A DNA stretch of 64,000 nucleotides, from the NCBI GenBank assembly GCA_913043025.1, contig CAJWLM010000004.1, positions 3,462-67,461 on the forward strand, given 5' to 3'. Positions 5,582 through 43,157 of this stretch are shown piece after piece. A model generated the notes under the pieces. It worked only from the letters and a program-made list of their open reading frames with translations. It did not search any database and was not told the DNA's origin. Positions within the stretch are counted from its first letter, which is position 1. Each line of letters starts with the position of its first letter. The position numbers were made by a program, and so were the translations under genes. This stretch comes from an uncultured Rhodospirillaceae bacterium. GTDB lineage: Bacteria > Pseudomonadota > Alphaproteobacteria > UBA8366.

Positions 5582-6454
5582 ATGTCCTCGGAAAATTCCT
5601 TTCAAACCCTCATTCTTAAACTCCATGAATTTTGGGCATCCAAGGGTTGCGTGATTTTGCAGCCCTATGATATTGAAGTTGGGGCTGGCACCTTTCATCC
5701 TGCGACGACACTACGTGCATTAGGGCCAGACCCTTGGAAAGTAGCTTACGTTCAACCTTCTCGCCGGCCAACCGACGGCCGGTATGGAGAAAATCCCAAC
5801 CGGTTACAGCACTATTATCAGTATCAAGTGATACTTAAACCCTCGCCGATTGAAAGTCAGGAGCTATACCTAGAGAGTCTATCCGCAATTGGCATTGATA
5901 TAAATCAACACGATATTCGGTTTGTTGAGGACGACTGGGAGAGCCCAACGCTGGGTGCTTGGGGTCTTGGATGGGAAATTTGGTGTGATGGGATGGAGGT
6001 GAGCCAATTTACCTATTTCCAGCAGGTAGGCGGTTTTGACTGTAAGCCAGTTTGTACGGAAATCACATATGGCCTAGAACGTTTGGCTATGCATGTTCAA
6101 GAAGTCGAGAATGTATATGATCTTGATTTTAACGGAGAGGGTGTGCGTTATGGTGATATTTTTCGGACAGCGGAGAAGCAATATTCCACTTATAATTTTG
6201 AGTGTGCAAACACCGAGATATTATTGCAGCATTTCCGTGACGCCGAAACAGAATGTAAAAGTTTGACTGCACGAGAATTACCCCTACCTGCTTACGATCA
6301 CTGTTTAAAGGCGAGCCATACATTCAATTTGCTCGATGCCCGCGGCGTAATAAGCGTTACCGAGAGGCAATCCTATATTTTACGAGTGCGTGCGCTCGCA
6401 AAAGCGTGTTGTAGAAGCTGGTTAATAAACCAGGGGCACTTGATTGATGGCTGA
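5582..6454 (+). CDS. glyQ: Glycine--tRNA ligase alpha subunit
   Basis: Highly conserved blocks [12 protein letters not shown] and [22 protein letters not shown]. Followed by glyS with an overlapping stop/start. Confidence 0.95.
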
Positions 6455-8525
6455 ACTACTTCTGGAAATCCTTTGCCAAGAAATACCGTCTAGGATGCAG
6501 AGCAAAGCTTGTGAAGATCTGAAGCAGTCAATCTGCCGTGGTCTTAAAGATTATAGGTTAGAGTTTACACGTGTTGAGGCTTATGTAACACCTAGGCGCT
6601 TAACTGTCGTAGTAGATGGCGTGCTCGAAACCCAGCCGGATGTTCGCGAGGAACGACGCGGTCCACGCATTGATGCGCCAAAACGGGCTATTGATGGTTT
6701 TCTCGGTAGCATTGGTATTCAAACTGTTGAGGAATGCGAACAGCGTGAAACGGAAAAAGGTACATTTTTGTTCGCCGTTTTAGAACAACAGGGCCTCCCC
6801 ACTATCGATATTCTGCCAAAATTAATAACTGCTTCGATCGAGCGAGTTTCATGGCCAAAGTCAATGCGGTGGGGTGAAAATTTGTTTCGTTGGGTGCGCC
6901 CCATTCATTCATTGTTGGCACTATTCGATGGAATCCCAGTCAAAGGTGCGCTTGATTTGCAGGGGGAGAAAATACCCTTTGGAACAGTCACTTCTGGCCA
7001 TCGATTTATGGCTCCTGATCCTTTCGAGGTAAAAGGCTTTGACGATTACTGCGCAAAACTTAACAATGGATTCGTTATCCTCAATCCTGCCGAACGCAAA
7101 AGGAAGATAGCAAAACAACTATCCAAGCTTGCCAGAAAAGTTAGTTTGCATGTTAAAGAGGATAATGAACTTTTGTTAGAGGTTGCTGGCCTTGTGGAAT
7201 GGCCAGTTCCACTGATTGGTCATATTGATACTGCATTCATGTCCTTGCCGCCCGAAGTTCTCACAACAGCTATCAGAACACACTTAAAGTATTTTCTTTT
7301 TGAGACCTCCTCGGGTGATCTTGCACCCTCTTTTGCTACTGTCGCTAATATCATGACAAAAGATCAAGGACTAGGGATCATTAAGGGTAATGAGCGTGTT
7401 CTGAGAGCTAGACTGTCAGACGCATGTTTTTTTTGGGATAAGGACCGGGAAACAACACTTGAAAGTCGCATCCCAGCGCTTAGTGAGATTACCTTTCATG
7501 ATAAGCTTGGATCATTGACTGACAAAGTGGAACGCATGCAACATCTTGCAGTTGTATTGGCACCATATTTTAGTAAAGCAAAGGCTTTACAGATACAGAA
7601 CGCCATACGTCTTTGTAAAACCGATCTTGTTACTCAAATGGTCGGTGAATTTCCTGAATTGCAAGGTAAAATGGGTCAATACTATGCGCTTAATGACGGA
7701 GAAAGCGATCAAGTTGCTGAAGCTATAGCCAATCACTATCACCCACAAGGGCGTGGCGATACTTGTCCCTCGGCACCGGTCTCAGTCACTGTAGGTTTAG
7801 CAGATAGACTTGATACCTTAGCCGGTTTCTGGGCCATTGATGACAAGCCTACGGGATCTAAGGATCCATATGCACTCCGACGAGCTGTACTCGGAACCAT
7901 TCGACTTATTGTTGAAAATGAATTGAGGATACCATTGCGTCCAGTTTTTGTTGCAGCACTCAAAGCGCAGGAACTCAATTGTGAGACTGCTACTGTAGCA
8001 CTCGATTTACTTAATTTTTTCATAGATCGATTGAAGGTGCACCTGCGAGAGAAAGGGGTTCGCCATGATCTTATTTCAGCCATTTTCGCGCTTGGGGACG
8101 AAGACGATTTGGTCCGATTGCTTAGACGAGTCAATGCGCTGGCTGACTTCGTTGAAAGTGATGATGGAGGAAATTTGTTGGTTGCTTTCAATAGAGCCGC
8201 TAATATCCTCAAAATAGAGGAAAAAAGAGATGGAAGAGAATTTAGTGCGGAGATAGATGAAGCGGTTTTAGTGCAAGACGAGGAAAAAGAACTCGCTGCG
8301 GCCCTAGTAAAGGCGAGAGACGACACCGATGCTGCGTTGACTAAGGAAGACTATGTCACGGCGATGCATGCGATGGCGGCATTGCGGACGCCTGTTGATA
8401 ATTTTTTCAATAATGTGACAGTCAATACGAAGGACGCAACATTACGTACCAATCGTTTAAAATTGCTTTCAGGGATACGTCAAACTACGCGCGCAGTCGC
8501 TGACTTCAATCAAATTGGGGGGTAA
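6447..8525 (+). CDS. glyS: Glycine--tRNA ligase beta subunit
   Basis: N-terminus is [13 protein letters not shown]. About 690 aa, overlapping the glyQ stop. The ATG at 6447 is one codon inside the listed ORF. Confidence 0.95.
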
Positions 8526-8530
8526 TTTGG

Positions 8531-11194
8531 ATGAATAGATGGGTTTACAGTTTCGGAGCAAATGAAACTGCGGGCGATGCTAGTATGCGCGATTTACTTG
8601 GCGGTAAAGGAGCAAACTTGGCTGAGATGTCCAAGCTAGGATTGCCGGTACCCCCTGGATTTTCTATTACCACAGAAGTTTGCACCCATTTTTATAAAAA
8701 TCATAATGCTTACCCAGACACTTTGAAGCAGCAGGTTGATAAAGCATTATGCTTGATTGAGTCCGAGGTCGGCTGCAAATTTGGTGACCCAAAAAACCCA
8801 TTACTTGTATCGGTAAGATCAGGTGCTCGGGTTTCAATGCCAGGCATGATGGATACCGTATTGAATCTCGGCCTCAACAAAATTACCGTTGAGGGCCTGG
8901 CGCAGAAAAGTGATGATGCGCGATTTGCCTATGATAGTTATCGTCGGTTTATTCAAATGTATGGTGATGTCGTCCTCGGCATTGACCATTACAATTTTGA
9001 AGAGATTTTAGATTTGAAAAAAGATGAGGCCGGAGTAACTCTCGATACAGAACTAACGTCAGATGATTTGAAGTCTTTAATAGATGCATATGAAGAAAAA
9101 GTTTCTAGCGTGACTGGCAAAGCCTTCCCTCAGGATCCAGTGGAACAGCTTTGGGGAGCGATTGGAGCTGTTTTTTCAAGTTGGATGGTTCCACGTGCGA
9201 TCACATACCGTAAACTCAATGATATTCCGGAGAATTGGGGCACTGCGGTCAATATTCAGGCGATGGTTTTCGGCAATATGGGGGAAAATTGTGCAACTGG
9301 CGTCGCCTTTACTCGCGATCCGTCAACGGGAGAAAATATATTTTACGGCGAATACCTTGTTAACGCTCAGGGTGAGGATGTCGTTGCCGGCATTCGTACA
9401 CCACAGCATCTGACAAAAGAGGGTAAGGAATCGAATAAATCCAATTTGCCAAGCATGGAAGAGGTCATGCCACAAGTTTTCGACCAACTCAAAGGTATTC
9501 GTAGTACTCTTGAACAACATTATACTGATATGCAGGACATAGAATTTACGGTGCAGCAAGGAAAGCTGTATATGCTCCAAACACGGGCAGGTAAACGGAC
9601 AACGGCTGCCGCTTTAAAAATAGCTGTTGATATGGTGGATGAGGGATTAATTGGTAGCGAGACAGCTATATCACGGATCGAGCCGTCATCATTAGATCAA
9701 CTTTTACATCCCACTCTTGATCCAGATGCAAATAGAAAAATAGTTGCACGTGGCCTCCCGGCATCACCGGGCGCGGCATCCGGTAAGGTCGTTTTCGACG
9801 CTGATGAGGCGGAACGGATATCGGCAAGAGGTGAGCAAGTTATTCTTGTGCGAATTGAAACAAGCCCAGAAGATATTCACGGTATGCATGCTGCTGAAGG
9901 TATTCTAACTACTCGGGGGGGCATGACAAGTCACGCGGCCGTTGTTGCGCGTGGCATGGGGAGACCTTGTGTAGCCGGCGCGGGTGAATTGCGGGTTGAT
10001 TATCAAGCTAAGACCATTGCTGCTCGTGATGTTGTGATTGGGGAAGGTGAGGAGATTACGTTAGATGGAGCTAGTGGTGACGTGATGGTTGGACGCGTTG
10101 CCACAATTCAACCAGAAATGTCTGATAATTTTCAGAGGCTTATGAAATGGGCTGACGACATTCGATGCCTGAAAGTCCGAACCAATGCGGAAACACCTAC
10201 CGAGTGTCGTATAGCTCGCGAATTTGGAGCGGAAGGTGTCGGCCTTTGCAGAACTGAGCACATGTTCTTTGAATCAGACCGTATAATTGCTATGCGTGAG
10301 ATGATAGTCAGCAATAATCTCGAGCAACGTCGTGTTGCTCTCGCTAAACTACTTCCTATGCAAAAGGCAGATTTTCACGATATTTTTCGTATTATGAAAG
10401 GACTACCCATAACGATCCGACTGCTAGATCCCCCGTTACATGAGTTTTTGCCTAAAACCGACGAAGAGATTAGAGAGGTAGCAGAGGCAGCAGGTGTTGC
10501 GGCTGATGAAGTTCGCCGTCGAGCTGCGCAGTTAGAAGAGGCTAATCCTATGTTGGGGCATCGAGGGTGTCGTTTAGGGGTCACCTATCCTGAAATTTCG
10601 GAGATGCAAGCGCGTGCGATTTTTGAAGCCGCTTTAAGTGTTAAAGAGGAGATTGGTGAAGAAGTGCACTTAGAAATTATGGTGCCATTAGTGGCAACCG
10701 GTAGAGAAATTGAGATTATTAAAGAAGTGATAGATAGGGTTGCCAATGATATTGAGAAAGAAACAGGTGATACTCTTAAATACATTGTTGGAACGATGAT
10801 TGAATTACCTCGGGCGGCATTATGTGCGTCCGAAATAGCCAAGACAGCGAGTTTTTTTAGTTTCGGAACCAATGATTTGACACAAACTGCGTTTGGTCTC
10901 AGCCGTGATGATTCTGGCTCATTTAGTCAGGAGTACGAGGAGCAGGGTGTGTTCTCAGTTGATCCATTCGTAACTTTGGATAGAGAGGGTGTTGGAGAAT
11001 TAGTACGCATGGCTGCTGAACGGGGACGGTCTGTAAGGCCTGATATAAAGCTCGGTATATGCGGTGAACACGGAGGAGACCCATCATCAATACAGTTTTG
11101 CGCGGAGATTGGTCTAGATTACGTATCGTGTTCACCTTTCAGAGTCCCCATAGCACGGCTGGCTTTGGCTCAAGCTGCTATTCTGCAGAAGTAG
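8531..11194 (+). CDS. ppdK: Pyruvate, phosphate dikinase
   Basis: 887 aa. Phosphohistidine motif GGMTSHAAVVARG and PEP-utilising C-terminal motif FFSFGTNDLTQ. Confidence 0.95.
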   Translation: MNRWVYSFGANETAGDASMRDLLGGKGANLAEMSKLGLPVPPGFSITTEVCTHFYKNHNAYPDTLKQQVDKALCLIESEVGCKFGDPKNPLLVSVRSGARVSMPGMMDTVLNLGLNKITVEGLAQKSDDARFAYDSYRRFIQMYGDVVLGIDHYNFEEILDLKKDEAGVTLDTELTSDDLKSLIDAYEEKVSSVTGKAFPQDPVEQLWGAIGAVFSSWMVPRAITYRKLNDIPENWGTAVNIQAMVFGNMGENCATGVAFTRDPSTGENIFYGEYLVNAQGEDVVAGIRTPQHLTKEGKESNKSNLPSMEEVMPQVFDQLKGIRSTLEQHYTDMQDIEFTVQQGKLYMLQTRAGKRTTAAALKIAVDMVDEGLIGSETAISRIEPSSLDQLLHPTLDPDANRKIVARGLPASPGAASGKVVFDADEAERISARGEQVILVRIETSPEDIHGMHAAEGILTTRGGMTSHAAVVARGMGRPCVAGAGELRVDYQAKTIAARDVVIGEGEEITLDGASGDVMVGRVATIQPEMSDNFQRLMKWADDIRCLKVRTNAETPTECRIAREFGAEGVGLCRTEHMFFESDRIIAMREMIVSNNLEQRRVALAKLLPMQKADFHDIFRIMKGLPITIRLLDPPLHEFLPKTDEEIREVAEAAGVAADEVRRRAAQLEEANPMLGHRGCRLGVTYPEISEMQARAIFEAALSVKEEIGEEVHLEIMVPLVATGREIEIIKEVIDRVANDIEKETGDTLKYIVGTMIELPRAALCASEIAKTASFFSFGTNDLTQTAFGLSRDDSGSFSQEYEEQGVFSVDPFVTLDREGVGELVRMAAERGRSVRPDIKLGICGEHGGDPSSIQFCAEIGLDYVSCSPFRVPIARLALAQAAILQK

Positions 11195-25586: not shown

Positions 25587-27005
25587 ATGGGTCGAAATAC
25601 CGATACTAAGAAGCTGCGACCGCCGTCCGTAGATCGATTACTCAAATCTAAGGAAATGGTCTTGGCGTGCGATGCTTATGGGCGCCATTTGGTGGCAGAT
25701 GCTATACGCGAAGAAGTGGCTTTACTGCGTTCCTCAATAACGTCTGGCGTTGTCACGCCACCAATGATGGAACCGCGAAATATTTTCTTAGCGGTCAACA
25801 AACGGTTGTCCAATTGGTTGCGACCTTCACTGCAGAGGGTTTTTAATCTCACTGGGACTGTTCTTCATACTAATTTAGGTAGGGCATCTATCCCGGTCGA
25901 AGCGTTAGAGGCTGTGGCAATGGTCGCTACCGGGGCCTCGAATTTGGAATATGACCTAGGTAAGGGTTGCCGTGGTGACCGAGATGATCATATCGAACCT
26001 TTAATCTGTAAATTGACTGGGGCAGATGCAGCTACGGTGGTCAATAACAATGCTGCGGCGGTATTGTTATTGCTGAACACACTTGCTGACAAGAAGGAAG
26101 TGCTGGTATCGCGAGGTCAATTAGTTGAGATAGGCGGATCTTTCCGCATCCCAGATATTATGAAGCGCGCAGGCTGCAGGTTACGTGAAGTGGGAACGAC
26201 TAATCGCACACATAAGGAAGATTATGCGGAGGTAATCGAAAAAAAGACCGCATTACTGATGTCAGTCCATACTAGTAATTACGTTGTGACTGGCTTTACC
26301 GCCGAGGTGGCACAATCTGATTTGGCTGTGATCGCGCACGAACATGGCTTACCTTACGTGGTAGACCTTGGCAGCGGTATGCTGATTGATATGACGCAGT
26401 TTGGGTTACCTCATGAGCCAACTCCCCAAGATGCGATCGCCGATGGTGCAGACCTCGTCACATTTAGCAGTGATAAATTACTCGGAGGCCCTCAGGCCGG
26501 CATAATAGCAGGGCGTGCTGATCTCATTAGGAAGATTAAAAAAAATCCATTAAAACGCGCACTGAGGCTTGATAAGATGACGATTGCTGCGCTGGAAGCG
26601 GTGCTACGGCTTTATCTAAATCCAGATTGTTTGGTCGAACGCTTACCTTCGTTGAGGGCGTTGTCCAAGCCGAAGACAAATATAATCAATGAAGCAACGG
26701 AGATAGCTCCTGCTGTAAGCGAAGCGTTAAAAAAAACTGCGACCGTGGGCGTCATCGAAATGAAAAGCCAAGTAGGAAGTGGTTCACAACCAACAAGCTT
26801 ATTGCCAAGTGGTGGGCTCGCAATTGTGCCAGCCGGAGGAAAGAAAGGTCGTGGTTCGAGATTGAAAGCACTCGCCGCTGCCTTTCGTAATCTACCGATA
26901 CCGGTAATAGGCCGTGTTACTGAGGACAAGTTTTTACTTGATTTTCGTTGCCTAGACAATCGCGTCGAGTTCGAGACTCAGTTAAACCAACTCCGGTACT
27001 CCTGA
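25587..27005 (+). CDS. selA: L-seryl-tRNA(Sec) selenium transferase
   Basis: PLP-lysine motif FSSDKLLGGPQAG. 472 aa, followed immediately by selB. Confidence 0.9.
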   Translation: MGRNTDTKKLRPPSVDRLLKSKEMVLACDAYGRHLVADAIREEVALLRSSITSGVVTPPMMEPRNIFLAVNKRLSNWLRPSLQRVFNLTGTVLHTNLGRASIPVEALEAVAMVATGASNLEYDLGKGCRGDRDDHIEPLICKLTGADAATVVNNNAAAVLLLLNTLADKKEVLVSRGQLVEIGGSFRIPDIMKRAGCRLREVGTTNRTHKEDYAEVIEKKTALLMSVHTSNYVVTGFTAEVAQSDLAVIAHEHGLPYVVDLGSGMLIDMTQFGLPHEPTPQDAIADGADLVTFSSDKLLGGPQAGIIAGRADLIRKIKKNPLKRALRLDKMTIAALEAVLRLYLNPDCLVERLPSLRALSKPKTNIINEATEIAPAVSEALKKTATVGVIEMKSQVGSGSQPTSLLPSGGLAIVPAGGKKGRGSRLKALAAAFRNLPIPVIGRVTEDKFLLDFRCLDNRVEFETQLNQLRYS

Positions 27006-27008
27006 TCC

Positions 27009-28952
27009 ATGATAGTGGCAACAGCGGGACACATAGACCACGGTAAAACCGTGTTAGTGCATGCGCTCACTGGAGTAAATACGGATAGACTGCCGGAAGA
27101 AAAATCACGCGGTCTCTCGATCGATTTGGGTTTTGCATATCGGTCATTTGATGAGAATCATACAATTGGGTTTGTTGATGTGCCGGGCCATGAGAAATTC
27201 ATTCGAAATATGTTAGCTGGCGTGACTGGGATCGATTTCGCACTGATGGTAATTGCCGCTGACGATGGTCCTATGCCTCAGACTAGAGAACACTTGGCAA
27301 TTATAAATCTTCTTGGTGTTGAAAATGGCGCGATTGCATTAACTAAAATAGACCGGGTCGATCAAGAACGGCGAGCTGAAGTTCAAAATGAAATTGCATC
27401 TTTAGTTGCTGACACAGTCATGGAGAACAAACCTATTTTCCCATGCTCAGGTCAGACAGGTCAGGGTATTATTGCGCTTAGTGAGCATCTGAAGAAAAAG
27501 GCTTTGGAGATTGCTTCAAGGGAGAAAACTGGAAAATTTCGGATGGCAATTGATCGGGTTTTCACTCTCCCTGGCGCAGGATTAGTAGTTACTGGAACTG
27601 TTTTTTCAGGAAAGACCACGTTAGGTGATCGTCTTGTTGTTTCGCCGCAAGGCCTAAATGTGCGGATCCGTTCAATCCATGCCCAAAATTCCCAGAGTGA
27701 AATTGGGTATGCAGGTCAGCGATGTGCTCTTAATATTACAGGAAGTGGGATCGATAGAGCAACAGTCTCGCGTGGAGATTGGGTGCTAGAGGGCGGACTG
27801 CATCAGCCAACAGCATGTGTTGATGCCACCATTGCTGTTCTCAAGTCAGAAAAAAGGTCTCTCATGCACTGGACGCCAGTTCATATTCACATTGGAGCTA
27901 AAGATATTACTGGCCGGGTGGCAGTTTTAGAGCACCAGAAGATAGCTCCCGGGGAACATGGTTTGGTCCAGCTAGTGTTAGATGAGAAATTGGGGTGTCT
28001 GCACGGAGATCGATTAGTTCTTCGTGATCAGTCAGCACGTCGAACTATCGCAGGAGGTATGGTGCTTGATCCATTTGCCTCTGAAAGACGAAGGCGGAAA
28101 ACAGGCCGGCTCAGGACTTTAAGAGCATTGGAATGTTCGGATCCGGGAAAAGCGCTAGGCAGGTTGCTGAAGTGCCAACGAAACGGCGTCAACCTGAGCC
28201 GTTTTAAGGTCCTTTGGAATATGTGCGACAAAGAAGCTGAGATGTTATGGCAGAAGTCAGATATGGTCTGCATAAGTTCTGCTGACGGGGAAATTGGTAT
28301 TTCCCTAGATTTCTGGGCTCATTTAAAAACAGTAATTATTGATGGTCTTGAGGCATGGCATCAACGATGGCCAGACAGGCCAGGCCCTGAGAAGGAGCGA
28401 TTACGGCGTTCGCTAGAATCGCTCGTTGAGGAGCCAATTTTTTCAGCAGCAATAACTGATCTAATCCGAGCCGGTTCAATCATTCAGAATGGTGCTTTTT
28501 CGTGCTTGCCTGGATATAGGCCCAAATTTGAAGGAAAGGTGGCTTCTCTATGGGAGCAAGTAGCAAAATTATTAGTGAATGACAGCTTGCGCCCCCCTCG
28601 TACCCGCGAGATAGCGGCTGAAGTGGATATAGATCTTAAGAAAGTAGAGGAGCTACTGGCCCGCGCATCTGCGATGGGGCTTGTCTATAGAATCTCGGAT
28701 AACCGATATTTTCTTTCTGAGACCGTGCAAGCATTGGCAGCTATAGCAGAGCGACTAGCTAACGAGGCCGATGATAATATGTTCACTGCTAAATTTTACC
28801 GAGACAACACTACCATAGGCCGCAATTTAGCAATTGAAGTGCTAGAGTTCTTCGATAGAAAAAAATTTACCAAGCGTATTGATGACAAGAGAACAGTTGA
28901 ATGTTCACATCAAGAGATTTTTGGCTCTGCACTGGATAAATCGGACGTGTAG
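27009..28952 (+). CDS. selB: Selenocysteine-specific translation elongation factor
   Basis: GTPase motifs GHIDHGKT, DVPGHEKF and TKID, plus a long winged-helix C-terminal extension (647 aa). Confidence 0.9.
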   Translation: MIVATAGHIDHGKTVLVHALTGVNTDRLPEEKSRGLSIDLGFAYRSFDENHTIGFVDVPGHEKFIRNMLAGVTGIDFALMVIAADDGPMPQTREHLAIINLLGVENGAIALTKIDRVDQERRAEVQNEIASLVADTVMENKPIFPCSGQTGQGIIALSEHLKKKALEIASREKTGKFRMAIDRVFTLPGAGLVVTGTVFSGKTTLGDRLVVSPQGLNVRIRSIHAQNSQSEIGYAGQRCALNITGSGIDRATVSRGDWVLEGGLHQPTACVDATIAVLKSEKRSLMHWTPVHIHIGAKDITGRVAVLEHQKIAPGEHGLVQLVLDEKLGCLHGDRLVLRDQSARRTIAGGMVLDPFASERRRRKTGRLRTLRALECSDPGKALGRLLKCQRNGVNLSRFKVLWNMCDKEAEMLWQKSDMVCISSADGEIGISLDFWAHLKTVIIDGLEAWHQRWPDRPGPEKERLRRSLESLVEEPIFSAAITDLIRAGSIIQNGAFSCLPGYRPKFEGKVASLWEQVAKLLVNDSLRPPRTREIAAEVDIDLKKVEELLARASAMGLVYRISDNRYFLSETVQALAAIAERLANEADDNMFTAKFYRDNTTIGRNLAIEVLEFFDRKKFTKRIDDKRTVECSHQEIFGSALDKSDV

Positions 28953-29131: not shown

Positions 29132-29228
29132 GGAGGCGTTACGTTGCCCGGTGGTGCGCCCGGTCTTCAAAACCGGAGAGGGGTATTTTGATGCTCCTGG
29201 TGGGTTCGACTCCCACACGCTTCCGCCA
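29132..29228 (+). tRNA. selC: tRNA-Sec (anticodon UCA)
   Basis: An 8-bp acceptor stem (GGAGGCGT / ACGCTTCC with one G-U). D-loop CGGT as in E. coli selC. Anticodon loop CTTCAAA with TCA at 29167-29169. Long variable arm, T-arm GTGGG-TTCGACT-CCCAC, discriminator G and encoded CCA. 97 nt. Confidence 0.9.
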
Positions 29229-29820: not shown

Positions 29821-29881
29821 TTTAGGCTTTTTAAATAAGTAACACTTTTTAAAAAATTTGTCACATTATGTGGGGGAGGAT

Positions 29882-31000
29882 ATGGTTCTAACCGTCAAAA
29901 GCAAACTAGCCTTACAGAGTACTGTGCCTCCCGATATTGACCTTGTGGAGTGGTATTATGAACAAGGGTTCTCCGATGGATTACCAGTAGTTCCTCCTAC
30001 GCCAGGAAAAATAGATGCGATGTTAGAGGAGCTGGGCGGTGAAACAGAAAGTGTTGTATGCAGAGTGCCACCTCGTTGGGGCACATTGACGACCGAGGTG
30101 CTCGCTATCAACTTGGTCATGGCGGGCTGTAAACCAGCATATGCAAGAGTGGTGCGTGCGGCATTGATAGCTTTGACTGATAATGCCTTCAATCTGAATG
30201 GTGTGCAGGCCACTACTCATATGGCTTCTCCACTTTTGGTCGTGAATGGACCGGTGAGAGATGAGATTGGGATGAACTCTGGTTATAACACATTTGGCTC
30301 AGGTAATCGTGCCAATGCCACAATAGGCCGTGCTGTTCGAATGGTTTTGCTAAATGTTGGTGGAGCATGGCCAGGAGATCTTGATAAATCGACATTAGGG
30401 TCGCCAGCAAAATATGCATACTGTATCGCGGAAAATGAAGAAGAAAGTCCCTTTATTCCTTATCACGTTGAAAAAGGGTTTGATGACTCTGATTCAACGG
30501 TTTTCGTTATGGCGGCAGAACCTCCCCACTCAGTCACCAACCATGTAGCTGATGATCCCGAGGGAGTGCTGGAATCTGTCTCCTCTGCGATGAGTACTTT
30601 TGCTAACAATAATGCAGTATCTGGTGGCCATTGCGCCATTGTCTTGGGGCCAGAACACGCAAAAACCATAAGCAGTAAAGGATGGAGCCGTAGCGACATA
30701 AGGAACTTTCTTTGGATGCATTCTGGGAACCGCTTCGGTGATATCGCTTTCGATCATCGTTATGGTAAAATTTATAATCGCAACCTTCCTAAATGGTATA
30801 AACGTGGCATTGAAGATCGAATCCCGATTGTTCCCTCACCCGATCATATTCATCTTTTCGTCGCCGGTGGAGAGGCAGGTCGGTTCTCAGCCTTTATTCC
30901 CGGGTGGGGTCATATGACCAATCCGGTATTACGCTCTGTTTCCGGATTGCCAGCTGCAACAACGGATACACTGTGTAATGATGAAGCTTGTCAGTATTAA
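29882..31000 (+). CDS. Conserved hypothetical protein (family not recognised)
   Basis: The ATG at 29882 follows GGGGGAGGA. A 372-aa soluble protein with motifs FSDGLPVVPPTPGK and NRANATIGRAVRMV. It ends 18 nt before the selenoprotein gene. Confidence 0.6.
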   Translation: MVLTVKSKLALQSTVPPDIDLVEWYYEQGFSDGLPVVPPTPGKIDAMLEELGGETESVVCRVPPRWGTLTTEVLAINLVMAGCKPAYARVVRAALIALTDNAFNLNGVQATTHMASPLLVVNGPVRDEIGMNSGYNTFGSGNRANATIGRAVRMVLLNVGGAWPGDLDKSTLGSPAKYAYCIAENEEESPFIPYHVEKGFDDSDSTVFVMAAEPPHSVTNHVADDPEGVLESVSSAMSTFANNNAVSGGHCAIVLGPEHAKTISSKGWSRSDIRNFLWMHSGNRFGDIAFDHRYGKIYNRNLPKWYKRGIEDRIPIVPSPDHIHLFVAGGEAGRFSAFIPGWGHMTNPVLRSVSGLPAATTDTLCNDEACQY

Positions 31001-31018
31001 CAGTTCGGGAGAGAAAAT

Positions 31019-31567
31019 ATGATTTCAGAAGAAACTTCTCAACAACAGGCTGTCTATGATCCTCGCGGTATAGCTGAGGCGGATTTAGTACCACTGTCTG
31101 CACGACCAAAAACACTTCTAAATTTGAGACTTGCAGTGCTCGATAATACGAAATGGAATGCAGGAAAGCTTCTGCGTAAAACTATGTCAAAGCTCGACAA
31201 AGAATTCAGTTTTGAAAGTATTAATTATTACAAAAAGGAGAGTTTTTCTAAGGTCGCTTCTGCTGCATTACTAGCTGAGATTGTCGAACATAATGATATA
31301 GCAATTACTGCTATTGGCGATTGAGGCTCATGCACATCGTGCTGTATGCATGATGGGTTTGCGCTTGAAAAATATCGAATTCCCACGGCGGTAATCTGTA
31401 CAACCACATTTCTTCATGAAGCACACCAACAGCGTGCGGCATTAGGCATGAGGGATCTTAATCCAGTGGCTATTACACACCCTCTCAGCACGATCTCTGA
31501 TGAGGAAATCGAAATGCGCGTTGATGAGGCTACTGTGCAAATCCGAAAGGTGTTGATGGGAAAATAA
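31019..31567 (+). CDS. UGSC-motif selenoprotein (Sec encoded by the UGA at 31322-31324)
   Basis: ORFs 31019-31324 and 31346-31567 are in the same frame, separated only by TGA. Read-through gives AITAIGD-U-GSCTSCCMHDGF... A hairpin lies directly 3' of the UGA, and selA/selB/selC are 2-5 kb upstream. Confidence 0.75.
31328..31353 (+). promoter_or_regulatory. Candidate bacterial SECIS hairpin
   Basis: A perfect 7-bp inverted repeat, TCATGCA (31328-31334) and TGCATGA (31347-31353), with a 12-nt loop CATCGTGCTGTA that contains GU. It starts 4 nt after the UGA. Confidence 0.5.
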
Positions 31568-35894: not shown

Positions 35895-35989
35895 GAAATA
35901 CTATTGTCTGCAAAGGATAGATATCAATATAGCAACGTGGCCTGTTGCAGAGGGCCTCTTATCTCACCGAGTATAATAGAGGGTGTTGC

Positions 35990-36904
35990 ATGTGTAATTG
36001 GGAAGAGGCAAGGGCATTAGAGGAAGAATTATTAACCAACTGTGAGCTGCGGAAAACAGCTTGCGGAGATGGGCACATGGTTTGGCGCATTTGGGGTAGT
36101 GGCCCCCCCTTAGTAATGCTTCACGGAGGGGCTGGTTCATGGCGGCATTGGGCCCTGAATATTCGCAGTTTGGCACGGTACTTTACGCTCTTAGTCGCCG
36201 ACTTGCCCGGGTTGGGAGACTCCGCTGAGCCGCCAATACCTTTCGATAATAATAATTTTCGTTCTTCAATAGGGCATTTAGCTAATATTATTTGTGACGG
36301 CATTGATGAATTGATTGGAGAAAAAGCGCATTTTAAAATATTGGCTTTTTCTTTTGGAGCAATAAATAGCGGATACGTGGCATTGCGTATGGGATCACGC
36401 GTTCAGCACCTGACTCTTGTTGGTGCAGGAGCGATGGGATGCACCTGGAGTGGCTTGCCTGCTGAGCCTAAATCATTAAGGGGGACAAAGACCGAGAAAG
36501 AACGGCGGGAAGTGCACCGTCATAACCTCGGCATATTAATGATTGGAAATCCAAATAATATCGATGACAGAGCAGTTTACCTCCAGTCAGAAAACATTTC
36601 CCGAGCAAGGCTACGCAGTTACCGCATAGCGGGAACTGACACGCTCCGTTGGGCACTTGAGCAGGTTAACAGCCCCATAAGTGGTATTTGGGGGCGGGGC
36701 GATGTCTACGCCATGCCGGATCTGGAAGGGCGGATCGATGTGATAAAAGGGATATTCAATGGCGCTGACTGCCGGGTCATTGAGGGGGCTGGTCATTGGG
36801 TTATGTACGAGGCGGCCGATACTTTTAATCAGGTTGGGTTGGAACAATTAGGCGCAATTGTGCAAAAGGGCGAGAGGGAAATTGGGCAAGCAAATGCAAG
36901 CTGA
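35990..36904 (+). CDS. Alpha/beta hydrolase, tandem paralog 1
   Basis: Oxyanion/helix block HGGAGSWRHWALNI, nucleophile elbow AFSFGA, Asp in IWGRGD, His in GAGHWVMYEA. The ATG at 35990 follows AGAGGG; the ORF is open from 35945. Confidence 0.75.
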   Translation: MCNWEEARALEEELLTNCELRKTACGDGHMVWRIWGSGPPLVMLHGGAGSWRHWALNIRSLARYFTLLVADLPGLGDSAEPPIPFDNNNFRSSIGHLANIICDGIDELIGEKAHFKILAFSFGAINSGYVALRMGSRVQHLTLVGAGAMGCTWSGLPAEPKSLRGTKTEKERREVHRHNLGILMIGNPNNIDDRAVYLQSENISRARLRSYRIAGTDTLRWALEQVNSPISGIWGRGDVYAMPDLEGRIDVIKGIFNGADCRVIEGAGHWVMYEAADTFNQVGLEQLGAIVQKGEREIGQANAS

Positions 36905-37727
36905 CGAATATATCACGGAAATTGAGTCATTGTCGGATGTAAAGACTTCGCATTGCGGTGGAGGGGAAATGGTCTGGCATGTTTGGGGTGAAGGCGAGCC
37001 TTTGATATTATTTCATGGCGGGTTTGGAAGCTGGATGCATTGGATTAAAAATATCGAATTTCTCGCTCGCCATTTTCAGGTATGGTGTCCTGATATTCCA
37101 TGCCACGGAGATTCTTCCGTGGCCCCTGAGCCACATGACGCATCAAACATAAGCAAGATCATCTCTGATGGCATAGATCAGGTTCTGCCAAATTTTGAAA
37201 AGCTTCGAATGTGCGGGTTTTCATTTGGGGGAATTATGGCCGGCAATACAGCAGTATGGCAGGGCGAACGCGTACACAAATTACTAATAGTGGGGTCGAA
37301 TGGCCTTGACTGCAGAAAAGGACCTGTTTCCGGTTTACAGGATTGGCGTAAATCAAATACCACAAAAGAACGTCTTGCTTGCCATCAACGTAATCTCGAG
37401 ATTATTATGTTTGGAAATCCACAAAATGTCGACGATTTGGCAATCTACCTCCAAGATAGGAATACTCGGCGATCCCGAATGAAGTCTCGTCATATTGCGA
37501 GCACGCCGGCGCTGCTCAATGCGTTACCGAAGTTGAAGGGCAGTTTATTTGGCATCTGGGGCGAAAAGGATGTCTACGCTAAAGATTTCATGGATGAACG
37601 TCGCAAGGTGTTTGAACGGATACAACCTGGCTGTGAATTTGAAGTTATTCCTGAGGCTGGTCATTGGGTGCCTTATGAAGCAGCTACACAATTCAATTTG
37701 TTAGCACTGGAAATGTTAAGGGATTAA
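36894..37727 (+). CDS. Alpha/beta hydrolase, tandem paralog 2
   Basis: HGGFGSWMHWIKNI, GFSFGG, IWGEKD, EAGHWVPYEA. The start is uncertain: ATG at 36894 or TTG at 36858, both overlapping the end of paralog 1. Confidence 0.75.
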   Translation: MQADEYITEIESLSDVKTSHCGGGEMVWHVWGEGEPLILFHGGFGSWMHWIKNIEFLARHFQVWCPDIPCHGDSSVAPEPHDASNISKIISDGIDQVLPNFEKLRMCGFSFGGIMAGNTAVWQGERVHKLLIVGSNGLDCRKGPVSGLQDWRKSNTTKERLACHQRNLEIIMFGNPQNVDDLAIYLQDRNTRRSRMKSRHIASTPALLNALPKLKGSLFGIWGEKDVYAKDFMDERRKVFERIQPGCEFEVIPEAGHWVPYEAATQFNLLALEMLRD

Positions 37728-37733
37728 GCTTGC

Positions 37734-38630
37734 ATGCTATTGGGAAAACAACGAGAGGCTCTCAAAGGAGGTGCTCCCCGGCATGGCGAAACGCCGGCGG
37801 ATTGTGTTGCTCGGTTTGATACTTCAGCAGAGATCTTAAATACTCCTTGCGGTGATGGAAGTTTGGTGTGGAGAAAATGGGGTGATGGCGAGCCGGTGCT
37901 TTTTTTTCATGGCAATCACGGCTCCTGGACGCACTGGATCCGGAATATCAGCGTTGTAGCTGAAAAATACTCCGTTTTTTGCGCGGACTCTCCCGGGCTT
38001 GGGGATTCCTCCCTGCCTCCATCCCCTTACAGCCTGGAGTGTATAATAGATGCATTCGAAATTGGCATTAAGGATTTAATTACCGAAAAAGTACCGATTC
38101 ATTTCGTTGGATTTTCCTATGGAAGCGCCATTGCTGCTAATACAGCGCTTCGATTCAAACAGCGTGTGAAATCATTGACAATGTGTGCATCTGCGCGATT
38201 GACAGCAACTGCAGATATTCCGCGTGTCATGAAAAGCTGGCGCCGCGCATCAACAGATGAAGATAGGTGGGAAGCACATAGACACAATCTTGCTGAGATG
38301 ATGATCGCAAAGCCAGAGTGTATTGACGATCTAGCTGTTTACCTTCAAAGTCAAAATGCGCCACGCGCCCGCATACGTACGAAGGAATTTATTCCTCGTG
38401 ATAGTTTGATAAATGCGCTTATTGGGTTGAGAGGGGTGCCTATACTAAATATCTGGGGCACAGAAGATGGTTTCTTCAGGGCATTCCTTGAAAGCAAAAC
38501 AGAACTTATTGACGGAAACAATATCGAGCTTGATGTAAAAACCATAGCCAATGTGTCCCACTGGTCACCTTATGAGGCATACACAACTGTCAATGAATGG
38601 TTAATAGAATGGTTTCAGGCACATGATTAG
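37734..38630 (+). CDS. Alpha/beta hydrolase, tandem paralog 3
   Basis: HGNHGSWTHWIRNI, GFSYGS, IWGTED, NVSHWSPYEA. Its N-terminal block ETPADCVARF is shared with paralog 4. Confidence 0.75.
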   Translation: MLLGKQREALKGGAPRHGETPADCVARFDTSAEILNTPCGDGSLVWRKWGDGEPVLFFHGNHGSWTHWIRNISVVAEKYSVFCADSPGLGDSSLPPSPYSLECIIDAFEIGIKDLITEKVPIHFVGFSYGSAIAANTALRFKQRVKSLTMCASARLTATADIPRVMKSWRRASTDEDRWEAHRHNLAEMMIAKPECIDDLAVYLQSQNAPRARIRTKEFIPRDSLINALIGLRGVPILNIWGTEDGFFRAFLESKTELIDGNNIELDVKTIANVSHWSPYEAYTTVNEWLIEWFQAHD

Positions 38631-38644
38631 ATTTGGTAATACCA

Positions 38645-39526
38645 ATGGAAAATGAAGTTCTTGGTGGTGGCTTTCCGCGCAACGATGAAACACCAGAGGA
38701 GTGTGTGGCTCGTTTTGAGAATGCGGCTGAGATTGCTTATACACCATGTGGCGATGGCCATGTGATATGGCATATTTGGGGAGATGGCGATCCTTTATTG
38801 CTATTGCATGGCAATCATGGAAGCTGGACTCACTGGATCAAAAATATACCATTTCTCTCCGAGCAATATCGAATTCTTGTTCCGGATGCCCCTGGGTTGG
38901 GGGACTCCTCGGTGCCGCCAGAACCTCATTCAATGGATGGGATGGCTTCTATCATGAACTCAGGTCTGGATAACTTAATAGGGAGCAAAACACGATGCCA
39001 TATGGCGGGTTTCTCCTATGGCAGTACACTGGGTGGTTACATGGCAATAGGTTTGGGCGCTCGTCTCAAGACATTCGCCATGATAGGAGCGGCTCGATTG
39101 ACTGGCCAACGAACTATGGTAGAGGGCTTAATCAATTGGAAACGTTTGGAAGATCCAGAAGAGATCATTGAAGCGCATCGACACAACCTAGGCCGAGTCA
39201 TGTTTAGCGGGCCGAGAGTAGTCGACGACCTCGCTCTTTATACTCAGGCCAAAAATGCGCCGCGAGCCAGAGTGAAGGCCCACCATTTTGCCCGTCGCCT
39301 AACCCTGCCAGATGCGTTGGTTAAATCGGCGACACAAATTTGTGCTTATTGGGGCACAGCAGATCAGTATTACCCCCATTATATTCAATCATACGACGAG
39401 CAAATTACTGCCCGAGGTCTTAAAATAAAAACTGAAATCATCGAGGGTGCTGGTCATTGGGCAATTTATGAGGCATCAAACGAAATGAACGAAAAGATGC
39501 TCAAATTCATGACATCACATGATTAA
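38645..39526 (+). CDS. Alpha/beta hydrolase, tandem paralog 4
   Basis: HGNHGSWTHWIKNI, GFSYGS, YWGTAD, GAGHWAIYEA. ATG at 38645; the ORF is open from 38633. Confidence 0.75.
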   Translation: MENEVLGGGFPRNDETPEECVARFENAAEIAYTPCGDGHVIWHIWGDGDPLLLLHGNHGSWTHWIKNIPFLSEQYRILVPDAPGLGDSSVPPEPHSMDGMASIMNSGLDNLIGSKTRCHMAGFSYGSTLGGYMAIGLGARLKTFAMIGAARLTGQRTMVEGLINWKRLEDPEEIIEAHRHNLGRVMFSGPRVVDDLALYTQAKNAPRARVKAHHFARRLTLPDALVKSATQICAYWGTADQYYPHYIQSYDEQITARGLKIKTEIIEGAGHWAIYEASNEMNEKMLKFMTSHD

Positions 39527-39551: not shown

Positions 39552-42500
39552 ATGTATTTCGACTCCAGATTGTGGCCATATACTAAAGGCGTGCGGTTAC
39601 GCATTTTAGCAGCAGTCCTTGTTGGATTGCTAGCAGCCGCTTTCGGTGTTGGGCGTTTGGCATTACTTGGTTGGTTGTTGGGGCGGGTCTGGGAGGGTGC
39701 ACCACTTACTCAGTTGTTGCTGCCAATATCAGTTATTGCGGTCGTGATGTTATCCCGAGGTTGGCTTGAATATTGGCGCAACATGATAGCACACAAGACA
39801 GCAGCGAAGGTTCAGGTGCATATACGGAAATTATTGTACAAACAGGTGGTCGCACTCGGGCCATCTTATTTTGGAAACGAAAGAACAGGTTCAGTAATAG
39901 CTGCTATGATTGACGGTGTTGAGCAGTTGGAAATTTATTTCGGCCAGTATATACCGCAGCTTTGCATCGCCACTATAACGCCGCTTGGAATTTTCGTAGG
40001 TGTTGCATTTCTGGATACGCCAGTCGCGCTAGTAATGCTTGGGGCAGCTTTAGTGACACTGGTTGGGCCGCAGATTTTTCATAAAATGGAAGCGGGAAAT
40101 TCGCGGCAACGCTCAATTGCGTTTAAAGCCTTTGCTGCTGAATTTCTAGATGCGGTTCAGGGGCTTGGTACACTGAAGGCATTTGGTCAAGCTAGGAGAC
40201 GTGCAACATATCTAGCGCTGAAGGCTAAGGCATTATTGCGTTCAACCATGTGGGTCCTCGCAACGAATCAGATTGCGCGTGGTTTAACAGATGCTGGTAT
40301 TGCCGTAGGTGTTGCGGCGACCTTAACATTGGGAGCCTACCGGTTGGTTGAAGGAGAAATTTCGCTTTCTGCTTTGTTGATTATCCTCATGATGGGTACC
40401 GAGGCCTACCGTCCGCTTCGCGATATGCGGTCATTACTTCACGCTGGCATGACTGGAAGGTCAGCAGCAGATATGATGCTGGGGCTCTTAAGTTCGAAAC
40501 CCGAGATTCAAGAATGTGTCGACGCCCAACCAACTCCTGATTTATCACCAACAATTTCATTCAAAAATGTGAAATTTGCTTACCCCAATTCTCGACGCAA
40601 TGCACATAGGGGGTTGAGTTTTGAAGTGGATCGAGGGGAGAGGATCGGTATAGTTGGCCCATCTGGTTGCGGTAAGTCGACGATTGTCAAGCTGTTACTC
40701 CGACAATATGATCCGAGTACGGGTGCGATTCTACTTGGCGGAATAAACTTATGTGATTTGCGATTAGAGGATCTTCGCAAACAAATGGCAGTCGTGAATC
40801 AAGATACCTATCTATTCCATGGAACAGTCGAAGATAATATCCGCTTAGGGAAGCCACACGCCACAGAAAATGAAATAAAAGCCGCAGCAATTTCAGCTAA
40901 TGCACACGATTTCATCAAACAATTGCCACAGATGTATGAAACTACCATCGGCGAACGTGGCATTAGACTTTCGGGCGGCCAGCGTCAGCGTATCGCGATC
41001 GCAAGAGCCTTGTTACGAGATGCGCCGATATTAGTGCTTGATGAAGCTTTGTCGTCCGTAGATGCTGAAAATGAGGCGATCATTCAAGAAGCGCTTGATC
41101 GATTGATGCAAGGCCGAACGGTGTTGATTTTTGCTCACCGGCTTTCTAGCGTTATAGGTGCTAACAGAATATTGGTCTTAGAAAATGGAAGGGTTTGTGA
41201 GCAAGGAAATCATGAGGAGTTGCTTGCTGCTGGTGGCATTTATCACAAATTAATGGCTGTGCAGGCAGCTCAAGTAGGCGAATATCAGGTTCCATATTTC
41301 GGCACGGATGACACTGCACCCAATCAAGTGATAAAAACGAATGATATTGATCGTCTTGCTGAGGCTGAAGCACAAAGTGAGCCGACTGATGCTATACTCA
41401 GAGCAAATGGAATGGGCTGGTTAGATGTTTTTCGTGAATTATTGAGTTTCGTGGGGCCTTGGCGTACTCAATTGTTGACGACTTTCATACTAGGGGTAGC
41501 GCGAGTATGCGCATTTATTGGTGTGGGCGTGATGGGTGCGCTAGCAGTAAGTGCAATTAAGCTAAACGAACCATTCGAGGTGTATCTAATTTGGCTCGGT
41601 ATTCTCGCTCCCATGGCAGGCCTCCTTCATTGGCTCGAAAGTTGGCTTGCCCACGATTTTGCTTATCGGATGCTTGCAGAGATGCGGATTCAATTGTTCG
41701 AAAAACTTGAGGCTTTGGCACCATCTTATTTGCTCAGAAGACGCACGGGTGACCTCGTAAGCATGGCGACACAGGATGTCGAGACAATCGAGTATTTTTT
41801 TGCACACACTATTGCACCGGCATTTGTTGCGGTTTTGGTCCCATTTGTTGTTTTTACAGTATTGATAATTGAAGGGTGGCAACTCGCGGTTGCGCTTGCT
41901 CCGTTCTTAGCGTGGGTTGCGTTAAGTCCCTTTCTTAAGCGAAAGCGCATTGACCGGTTAGCATCGCGTGCGCGGGAGGTACTAGGGAACCTTAATGCTC
42001 ACGCTGTAGATACGGTCCAGGGACTAGCAGAAATTACAGCATTCCAGGCGGAACGACGACGCGAGATTGAGTTTATTCAGAAGGTACGGGAGCACCATCG
42101 AGCTCGTCTTCCTTTCTTCGGAGATATGACTGCACAAGCGGCCATATTAGAAACCGCTATCGGCCTCGGTGGTCTTGCCGTCATCACAACTGGTGCTCAC
42201 CTTGTCGCAGTAGGGTCATTTGAACCTTCTAATTTGCCCCTTTTGACCATTCTTGCAATGGCGGCGTTTTTACCGATTTCAGAAATTGCTCACATCGGTC
42301 GACACCTTGCTGACACACTCGGGTCGACACGCAGGATTTACGCTGTTCATGGAGAGCCGGTTGATGTAACCGACGGGCCGGGCGTGACACGGCCAAAAAG
42401 TGTCGGCGGGGCAGAGCTGGCTCTGGAGAAAGTATCGTTTCGTTATTTTGGTCGTAAGCTGGATGCCCTGCATGAGGTCGCATTCACCATTCCTGCCGGT

Positions 42501-43157
42501 AAAACTGTTGCATTAGTGGGTCCATCGGGTTCAGGCAAAAGTACCACCGCACATCTCTTGATGCGATTTTGGGACCCAAATAATGGCCGGGTGACGATGG
42601 ATGGCTGTGATCTTCGCGAATTTGCACTTGATGACCTGCGTCGGCAAATAGCACTTGTTGCTCAGGATACTTATCTTTTCAACGACACGTTGAAAAATAA
42701 CATATTAATGGCTAAACCGGACGCTAGTGATTTTGAGGTTAATAAGGCGGTACAAAGAGCGGCGCTCGGAGAATTCGTTGGAACCGTGCCAGGTGGATTG
42801 GAATCCTCTGTTGGCGAGCGTGGCATGCATCTTTCTGGAGGGCAGCGTCAACGAGTTGCGATTGCGCGTGCATTCCTCAAAGACGCACCTGTGCTAATTT
42901 TGGACGAGGCAACCAGTCATCTCGACGCCGTAAGTGAGACATCTGTGCGAGACGCTTTGAAAGAATTAATGGCTAATCGCACCACGCTCGTTATTGCTCA
43001 TCGACTATCAACAATTCGTGAAGCGGATTTAATAATAGTACTCGAAAACGGTTTTATTTCCGAAGTTGGTTCGCATGACGAATTGCTTTCAAATAAGGGA
43101 TTATATGCGAAATTAGTTTCGCGTCAGATGGTTGCGGCGGCACAGAGTATCACCTAG
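39552..43157 (+). CDS. Fused full-length ABC exporter (TMD-NBD-TMD-NBD), CydD-CydC-like
   Basis: 1201 aa. Two sets of 6 TM helices, each followed by an NBD. Walker A: GPSGCGKST and GPSGSGKST. Signature: LSGGQRQRIAIARA and LSGGQRQRVAIARA. Walker B: ILVLDEALS and VLILDEATS. Confidence 0.85.
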   Translation: MYFDSRLWPYTKGVRLRILAAVLVGLLAAAFGVGRLALLGWLLGRVWEGAPLTQLLLPISVIAVVMLSRGWLEYWRNMIAHKTAAKVQVHIRKLLYKQVVALGPSYFGNERTGSVIAAMIDGVEQLEIYFGQYIPQLCIATITPLGIFVGVAFLDTPVALVMLGAALVTLVGPQIFHKMEAGNSRQRSIAFKAFAAEFLDAVQGLGTLKAFGQARRRATYLALKAKALLRSTMWVLATNQIARGLTDAGIAVGVAATLTLGAYRLVEGEISLSALLIILMMGTEAYRPLRDMRSLLHAGMTGRSAADMMLGLLSSKPEIQECVDAQPTPDLSPTISFKNVKFAYPNSRRNAHRGLSFEVDRGERIGIVGPSGCGKSTIVKLLLRQYDPSTGAILLGGINLCDLRLEDLRKQMAVVNQDTYLFHGTVEDNIRLGKPHATENEIKAAAISANAHDFIKQLPQMYETTIGERGIRLSGGQRQRIAIARALLRDAPILVLDEALSSVDAENEAIIQEALDRLMQGRTVLIFAHRLSSVIGANRILVLENGRVCEQGNHEELLAAGGIYHKLMAVQAAQVGEYQVPYFGTDDTAPNQVIKTNDIDRLAEAEAQSEPTDAILRANGMGWLDVFRELLSFVGPWRTQLLTTFILGVARVCAFIGVGVMGALAVSAIKLNEPFEVYLIWLGILAPMAGLLHWLESWLAHDFAYRMLAEMRIQLFEKLEALAPSYLLRRRTGDLVSMATQDVETIEYFFAHTIAPAFVAVLVPFVVFTVLIIEGWQLAVALAPFLAWVALSPFLKRKRIDRLASRAREVLGNLNAHAVDTVQGLAEITAFQAERRREIEFIQKVREHHRARLPFFGDMTAQAAILETAIGLGGLAVITTGAHLVAVGSFEPSNLPLLTILAMAAFLPISEIAHIGRHLADTLGSTRRIYAVHGEPVDVTDGPGVTRPKSVGGAELALEKVSFRYFGRKLDALHEVAFTIPAGKTVALVGPSGSGKSTTAHLLMRFWDPNNGRVTMDGCDLREFALDDLRRQIALVAQDTYLFNDTLKNNILMAKPDASDFEVNKAVQRAALGEFVGTVPGGLESSVGERGMHLSGGQRQRVAIARAFLKDAPVLILDEATSHLDAVSETSVRDALKELMANRTTLVIAHRLSTIREADLIIVLENGFISEVGSHDELLSNKGLYAKLVSRQMVAAAQSIT

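Follow-up and report, generated by a model that had tools for sequence, protein, structure and literature searches.

A UGSC-family selenoprotein gene read through an in-frame UGA, and the possible redox partnership of its product with the upstream protein P380

Two short open reading frames (ORFs) listed for this stretch of DNA (the window: 64,000 nt, along which all positions are counted), 31019-31324 (101 aa) and 31346-31567 (73 aa), raise the question of whether the TGA between them ends a protein or encodes selenocysteine (Sec) and, if the latter, what the resulting protein does. Sequence comparison leaves us almost certain that 31019-31567 is a single, genuine gene for a selenoprotein of the UGSC family. 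As to function, we lean somewhat towards the view that this protein (here called UGSC) and the product of the gene immediately upstream, which we call P380, make up a widespread, previously undescribed two-component selenol/thiol-dependent enzyme, in which P380 would provide a new catalytic fold with a Cys91/Cys189 pair and a CxxxxC shuttle resembling that of ribonucleotide reductase (RNR), and UGSC would be a flavodoxin-fold protein distantly akin to the Sec domain of PrdB/GrdB. If true, this would give a role to one of the most abundant aquatic selenoproteins, which for some 20 years has been catalogued with no known function. The features of the gene itself are:

31019-31567, + strand: coding sequence of a UGSC-family selenoprotein with Sec102, the frame running through the UGA; PF24696 173.3 bits, NF041046 149.5 bits
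31322-31324, + strand: in-frame UGA, read as the Sec codon (the U of U-G-S-C); TGA in 80/80 loci, Cys in full-length homologs
31007-31013, + strand: Shine-Dalgarno-like GGGAGAG, 5 nt ahead of the ATG at 31019; read by eye and putative

From the ATG at 31019 to the TAA at 31565-31567, the sequence and its translation form a single frame of 183 codons with one internal stop. The two listed ORFs are the two halves of this gene, and the apparent start of the second, at 31346, is Met110 of the joined product of 182 aa (...AITAIGD-U-GSCTSCCMHDGFALEKYRIPTAVICTTTF...ITHPLS...). The initial annotation had said that the ORFs share one frame, that only the TGA at 31322-31324 splits them and that reading through gives a 182-aa product; the sequence and translation bear this out, and the peptide is as it was written there. 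Its further expectation, that standard gene callers would split or truncate the gene, is matched by the public calls of orthologs, which consist of 101 + 73/75 aa; such split ORFs lie at 8177-8725 of locus L095, 6269-6826 of L096 and 2968-3516 of L097, and in each case both halves match PF24696. In the JGI protein P0001, the Sec column is occupied by Trp, the TGA having been read as a Trp codon.

With U changed to C, the joined protein matches PF24696 (UGSC) at 173.3 bits, the cutoff being 25 (E 6.5e-51), and the alignment covers residues 12-180 of 182 without a break across the TGA; the match to NF041046, ‘UGSC family (seleno)protein’, also lies above its curated cutoff of 125 bits. Membership of a UGSC-motif family, proposed earlier from the letters of the sequence, is thereby confirmed by both profiles. 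A search of 5.8 billion proteins returned about 16 full-length homologs of 184-207 aa and about 100 proteins of 100-101 aa that end in ...AIGD, the latter being Sec forms cut short at the UGA. The aligned full-length proteins have Cys at the UGA column (GDCGSC); a Cys stands there in P0003-P0018 and in P0108.

The initial annotation described the family as one reported from marine metagenomes, and it is indeed listed in the Global Ocean Sampling (GOS) survey, where ‘UGSC-containing’ is a major selenoprotein family of unknown function, among the most abundant, its Sec forms numbering 255 and its Cys forms 21 (PMC2398784). A 2026 review still describes it as functionally uncharacterised (PMC13188914). 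The window protein shows the same full-length match and the same U-G-S-C column as the ‘UGSC-containing protein’ of the Zhang and Gladyshev surveys (reference ABI76733.1, from Hyphomonas neptunium), the Sec form is far commoner than the Cys form here as in GOS, and both are found in aquatic and soil Proteobacteria. There is no essential difference between them apart from the fold, which the literature gives as thioredoxin (Trx)-like and our model as flavodoxin-like. The flagged gene is therefore already known, as a typical representative of selenoproteins that have been on record since about 2006. Its flagging was a correct re-discovery that confirms the mis-splitting of such genes by ordinary gene callers, and the wider value lies in its context, where a very large unnamed family is tied to an abundant selenoprotein and the pattern of fusions points to a redox relay.

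Before that context is considered, the contrary reading of the TGA has to be dealt with, namely that it is a real stop, flanked by two small genes or lying in a decaying pseudogene. Gene callers do annotate two ORFs, and the second has an ATG of its own. We scanned one genome per GTDB species (412 relatives) and kept the best 80 loci, which span Alpha- and Betaproteobacteria, Rokubacteria, Entotheonella and others. The TGA stands at the same column in all 80 (79 by pattern, L040 by eye), and GSCTSCC[M/T]HD follows it directly in every one. Two independent genes are excluded because the peptide right after the stop, ahead of any restart codon, is strongly conserved. The Pfam profile spans the stop, full-length orthologs with Cys exist, synonymous sites are frozen specifically in the Sec forms (see below), and Sec-decoding genes adjoin the gene both here and in some of the other loci. 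Taken together, these comparative data effectively refute the absence of recoding, to which we assign next to no probability. The Sec-decoding genes of the window are:

25587-27005, + strand: selA, selenocysteine synthase (TIGR00474, 579 bits; PF03841)
27009-28952, + strand: selB, Sec-specific elongation factor (TIGR00475, 442.5 bits; SelB winged-helix domains)
29132-29228, + strand: tRNA-Sec with anticodon UCA (ARAGORN; Rfam RF01852, 71.2 bits)

The initial annotation had described a complete decoding set 2-5 kb upstream on the same strand. The presence of selA, selB and tRNA-Sec is upheld; ‘complete’ goes too far, as no selD was seen in the window, although the motif regular expression used for this is a weak test. 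UGSC loci elsewhere can also have selB or selA as a neighbour, as is the case for 14 of the 80 genomes and for a contig from Herminiimonas. A regular-expression search of the window for other plausible genes with an in-frame TGA gave no convincing candidate besides the UGSC locus, and UGSC may be the sole selenoprotein gene near the selA-selB-tRNA-Sec cluster.

Reading of the UGA as Sec would be expected to involve a selenocysteine insertion sequence (SECIS), for which there is one likely candidate:

31335-31355, + strand: probable bacterial SECIS; 8-bp stem (31335-31342/31348-31355) with the loop UGUAU (31343-31347), starting 10 nt past the UGA

This hairpin is the structure given by RNAalifold and also the minimum free energy (MFE) fold of the sequence found here. 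Its 8 bp are paired in 95% of the cells in the 80 sequences, and a conserved core of 6 bp (31337-31342/31348-31353) is paired in 80 of 80. One alignment pair (24-36) occurs as G-U, G-C and A-U, and at the outer pair 21-39, 45 sequences have G-C, five (the window included) have A-U and 28 are unpaired. The perfect 7-bp hairpin at 31328-31353 to which the initial annotation had drawn attention (TCATGCA at 31328-31334, TGCATGA at 31347-31353) does exist, but it is not the conserved one: in the same 80 sequences 86% of its cells are paired, and about half of the sequences fail to form two of its pairs. The likely SECIS is the overlapping hairpin at 31335-31355, with a putative role in recruiting SelB.

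In the fdhF element of Escherichia coli and in the bSECISearch consensus, the SECIS is a stem-loop within the coding sequence, about 10-11 nt after the UGA, with a G in the first two positions of the loop. The hairpin at 31335-31355 shares with the fdhF type the location of the stem in the coding sequence about 10 nt after the UGA and a small apical loop, UGUAU, with G as its second base; it differs in that no bulged U can be assigned. The hairpin alone is weak evidence, since a comparable one follows 17 of the 2331 TGA triplets in the window (0.7%), and becomes strong evidence once conservation is added. Two results tell against it. Compensatory change is scarce, with a single pair showing double changes, in five cells; this evidence is thin because the hairpin sequence hardly varies. 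The 70-nt fold is also unexceptional when compared to shuffles (z = -1.26). An Rfam search gave no match at the hairpin site.

Synonymous codon choice downstream of the UGA provides a second, separate view of the same segment. Among the 80 Sec forms, the codons concerned are:

Codon +5 after the UGA: Ser, TCG in 78/80, the outliers being TCA
Codon +6: Cys, TGC in 80/80
Codon +7: Cys, TGT in 80/80
Codon +8: Met or Thr, ATG, or ACG in 39/39 with Thr, in genes that favour ACC elsewhere
Codon +9: His, CAT in 72/80 against a CAC-biased background

Codons beyond these show normal synonymous variation. In Cys-form genes for the same CGSCTSCC peptide, codon +7 is TGC, the hairpin is missing and the sites are not frozen, and the MFE over 45 nt is -7 to -14 kcal/mol for the Cys forms versus a mean of -19.7 for the Sec forms. 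By this comparison, the freezing of codons +5 to +9 is due to selection at the RNA level, which is confined to genes in which a UGA has to be decoded. We suggest that the UGA at 31322-31324 would be read as Sec through tRNA-Sec, SelA and SelB, with SelB recruited by the hairpin at 31335-31355.

What the selenoprotein might do is best approached through the gene that precedes it, the stop codon of which (30998-31000) is separated from the UGSC start by 18 nt:

29858-31000, + strand: P380, 380 aa, of an unnamed family; the listed start is TTG, and the true start may be a few codons downstream
30974-30991, + strand: C373-x-D-x-x-C378 tail at the C-terminus of P380, with two more residues before the stop

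In 78 of the 79 loci that could be assessed (L073 ends at a contig edge), the gene immediately upstream of UGSC, on its strand, is P380. It also precedes all close Cys-form UGSC genes, those of Mycobacterium included, and in the reverse test three of three independently picked P380 orthologs were followed by UGSC. The P380 orthologs are 67-91% identical across phyla, and their relatives, wherever a source names them, are called ‘hypothetical protein’. In an exhaustive profile search, the P380 superfamily came to 5,721 clusters (50% identity), of which 1,597 had E <= 1e-30. Neither P380 nor 62 of its relatives gave anything consistent in Pfam (E <= 10) or NCBIfam (E <= 1), and searches of the PDB with the single sequence and with a 62-member profile, as with the UGSC profile, gave no meaningful match. 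Foldseek with the P380 model gave nothing below an E-value of 0.001, the best match being class I fumarate hydratase with a template modelling (TM) score of 0.23. Near-invariant across the superfamily are D40, C91 (in a MAGC motif), R158, C189 (in Y..C.AENE) and E192.

P380 also occurs fused to other domains. A domain scan of the 65 longer representatives of the superfamily gave the following:

UGSC, in both orders: 41/65
Redoxin/AhpC-TSA: 4/65
Ferredoxin-thioredoxin-reductase catalytic subunit (FTR-B): 2/65
Pyridine-nucleotide-disulfide oxidoreductase: 1/65

Some of the UGSC fusions stop at ...GD or start just past the Sec position; in these, the gene caller has cut short a fusion that contains Sec. 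We consider it reasonably probable that UGSC is a redox partner of P380, mainly because the domains that take its place are all disulfide-exchange or disulfide-reducing modules. The alternative fusions (redoxin, FTR-B and flavoprotein reductase) likewise point to a thiol/selenol-dependent reductase activity. The link between UGSC and P380 is probably not entirely new: a fusion of UGSC to a domain called ‘Unknown_1’, which may or may not be P380, was mentioned in 2008 (PMC2398784).

The C-terminus of P380 is consistent with such a role. All 75 Sec-type and all 11 Cys-type unfused P380 orthologs (86/86) end in C-x-[D/G]-x-x-C-x-x-COOH, and the CxxxxC tail is absent from the inspected P380 forms that are fused to UGSC or redoxin. 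The pLDDT (predicted local distance difference test) score of the P380 model is low at residues 370-380, and the tail is probably flexible. In the R1 protein of the E. coli class Ia RNR, a C-terminal tail (C754/C759 of NrdA) accepts electrons from thioredoxin or glutaredoxin. P380 would share with R1 a flexible C-x4-C-x2-COOH tail and the pairing with a small dithiol protein, here a selenol-thiol one; it differs from R1 in having no relation in sequence or fold, in that its relay is a proposed one, and in that the small partner would be a dedicated flavodoxin-like selenoprotein.

The relay that we infer, including its direction, its steps and the roles of the individual cysteines, would run as follows. 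UGSC would serve as the dedicated selenol/thiol redox subunit of P380, the presumed catalytic partner. P380 would turn over a substrate through Cys91 and Cys189; the oxidised state would then move to the flexible tail, C373-x4-C378, and from there to U102/C105 of UGSC as a selenenylsulfide; finally, a general or a dedicated NAD(P)H-linked disulfide reductase would re-reduce UGSC. One candidate for a dedicated reductase is found in the Cys-form loci of Mycobacterium, where the order is LysR (divergent), P380, UGSC and then a 327-aa Pyr_redox_2 protein (8658-9641 in L089, 5119-6102 in L090) that is similar to thioredoxin reductase in size and domain.

Several observations weigh against a P380-UGSC enzyme of this kind. 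Clustering of the neighbours revealed no conserved gene for a dedicated reductase near the Sec-type loci. L003, which has a UGSC gene with TGA (5700-6010), is the sole assessable locus without an upstream P380 and has a divergent gene instead, and the distant actinobacterial UGSC homologs (P0108, 30% identity) do not adjoin P380. P380 itself has no recognisable relative, its model is of moderate quality (pLDDT 73), and the reductase role suggested for it is drawn from the identity of the fused domains.

The fold of UGSC was evaluated with an AlphaFold2 model of P0016, a naturally Cys-containing homolog that shares 52% identity with the window protein as well as the CGSCTSCC motif. This model (pLDDT 86, predicted TM score 0.80) is a strictly alternating (beta-alpha)x5 arrangement, and Cys110, the equivalent of Sec, sits between strand 102-108 (strand 3) and helix 111-126 (helix 3). 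The top 50 Foldseek matches in the PDB are of the flavodoxin, azoreductase, CheY-like, PTS-IIB and lumazine-synthase types, with TM scores <= 0.5; thioredoxin, peroxiredoxin and glutaredoxin do not occur among these 50. UGSC is thus predicted to be flavodoxin-like and not thioredoxin-like, with Sec102, the U of a U-x-x-C motif, placed where strand 3 ends and a helix begins, and the Trx-like fold of the surveys is not supported by the P0016 model.

This bears directly on the possibility that UGSC is a stand-alone Trx-like oxidoreductase, whose targets would be cellular disulfides or peroxides in general and whose action would not depend on P380. Trx-like selenoproteins typically carry a UxxC motif, and a Trx-like fold is stated in the literature (PMC2398784, PMC13188914). 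The thioredoxin fold is beta-alpha-beta-alpha-beta-beta-alpha, whereas the model alternates throughout and has no beta-beta hairpin, and the top 50 structures from Foldseek are flavodoxin-like without exception. Given also the near-obligate pairing and frequent fusion with P380, we regard a stand-alone Trx-like role as very improbable.

The initial annotation likened the U-x-x-C-x-x-C spacing seen here to that of GrdB-type selenoproteins. The UGSC protein is not a member of that family: it scores 14.8 bits against the GrdB profile TIGR01917, the cutoff of which is 602.2 (E 0.0098, with residues 83-159 aligned to profile positions 327-398), it has no match to PF07355, and the third Cys is not conserved. 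A weak local likeness does stand. Among 17 UGSC members, PrdB (TIGR04483) is weakly matched by 12 and GrdB by seven (best E 5.1e-5), with further weak matches to GrdF, GrdH and ‘various selenoprotein B’. When UGSC was aligned by hhalign with PrdB/GrdB fragments from the GOS supplement (confirmed as PF07355), U fell on U and C on C (E 3.3e-4, probability 38%, 38 columns), and the distance from there to the strand that follows, ‘E..(G)IPT’, was identical. The GOS fragments examined have UxxC with no third Cys at +6. UGSC possibly shares a local Sec-site architecture with PrdB/GrdB, and remote homology, as distinct from membership, is conceivable on the strength of these alignments. GrdB, GrdF, GrdH and PrdB (PF07355, TIGR01917, TIGR04483) may have in common with UGSC a hydrophobic beta-strand, a U-x-x-C at the N-terminus of a helix and a second, larger subunit. 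They differ in length (182 aa for UGSC against the 431 positions of the GrdB profile) and in context, as the UGSC locus has no pyruvoyl proprotein of the GrdE/PrdA type, no GrdA and no setting of Stickland fermentation; indeed, neither GrdA nor GrdE nor PrdA was found among 11 ORFs scanned between 23.4 and 36.9 kb. The Grd and Prd systems have been characterised in anaerobes, and the bacteria with UGSC are mostly Alpha- and Betaproteobacteria.

The main rival to the relay follows from this likeness. P380 would bind a small substrate, Sec102 would attack it to form a selenoether and Cys105 would resolve the intermediate, in the manner of protein B of D-proline and glycine reductase, so that the reaction is a reductive cleavage of a C-N, C-S or C-O bond and UGSC is a catalytic subunit and not only a carrier. 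It would account for the PrdB and GrdB profile matches and for the alignment of Sec on Sec, and the two-subunit layout recalls PrdA/PrdB and GrdE/GrdB. The hhalign probability is, however, just 38% over its 38 columns, the GrdB score falls far below its cutoff, and P380 is unlike the pyruvoyl proproteins GrdE and PrdA, or any Pfam family even at E <= 10. Moreover, paralogous P380s swap UGSC for a redoxin, FTR-B or a flavoprotein disulfide reductase, all of them generic disulfide-exchange domains, a pattern better suited to an electron relay than to substrate-specific selenoether chemistry. We therefore hold PrdB/GrdB-type chemistry to be unlikely.

The cluster U102-x-x-C105-x-x-C108-C109, four Cys/Sec within eight positions, could also be imagined to ligate a metal or an Fe-S centre, or to bind Hg or As for detoxification, and eight of the 17 UGSC members weakly match NapF (best E 9.6e-4) and other ferredoxins. 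These ferredoxin matches are short matches to a Cys pattern. Family-wide, only U/C-x-x-C is retained, that is, U/C102 and C105; the motif holds just two Cys in P0108 (CGSCSAATV) and in the fusion P0275 (CGSCTSWAV), and many homologs have Ala at position 108. A metal or Fe-S site, scarcely credible in our view, was rejected on the ground that two of the four Cys alone are found family-wide.

Returning to the locus, one further gene lies between tRNA-Sec and P380:

29239-29820, + strand: CMD/AhpD-like protein (PF02627, E 1e-8)

It contains neither CxxC nor UxxC, is found upstream of P380 in only seven of the 80 loci and weakly matches the NCBIfam entry ‘YciW-related (seleno)protein’ (E 0.00098); it may or may not be part of the UGSC-P380 module. 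Clustering of the neighbours of 79 of the 80 loci gave no third conserved gene, the gene calls being crude and contaminated by shadow ORFs in GC-rich loci. The commonest neighbour cluster, named by eye like the others, is coenzyme A (CoA)-transferase-III-like and occurs in 14 loci; the next have 12, 11 and fewer. A CoA-transferase-III gene follows UGSC in L091/L092 and in L096, and the similar gene in the 14 Sec-type loci was recognised by eye. A scan of 28.9-31.75 kb for promoters and terminators found no excess of sites over shuffles.

Further downstream in the window, 35945-39526 holds four tandem paralogs of an alpha/beta-hydrolase that are mutually 33-42% identical. These are followed at 39552-43157 by a 1,201-aa protein consisting of two fused ATP-binding cassette (ABC) transporter units, and the same hydrolase-ABC arrangement is seen in the syntenic metagenome contig L095.

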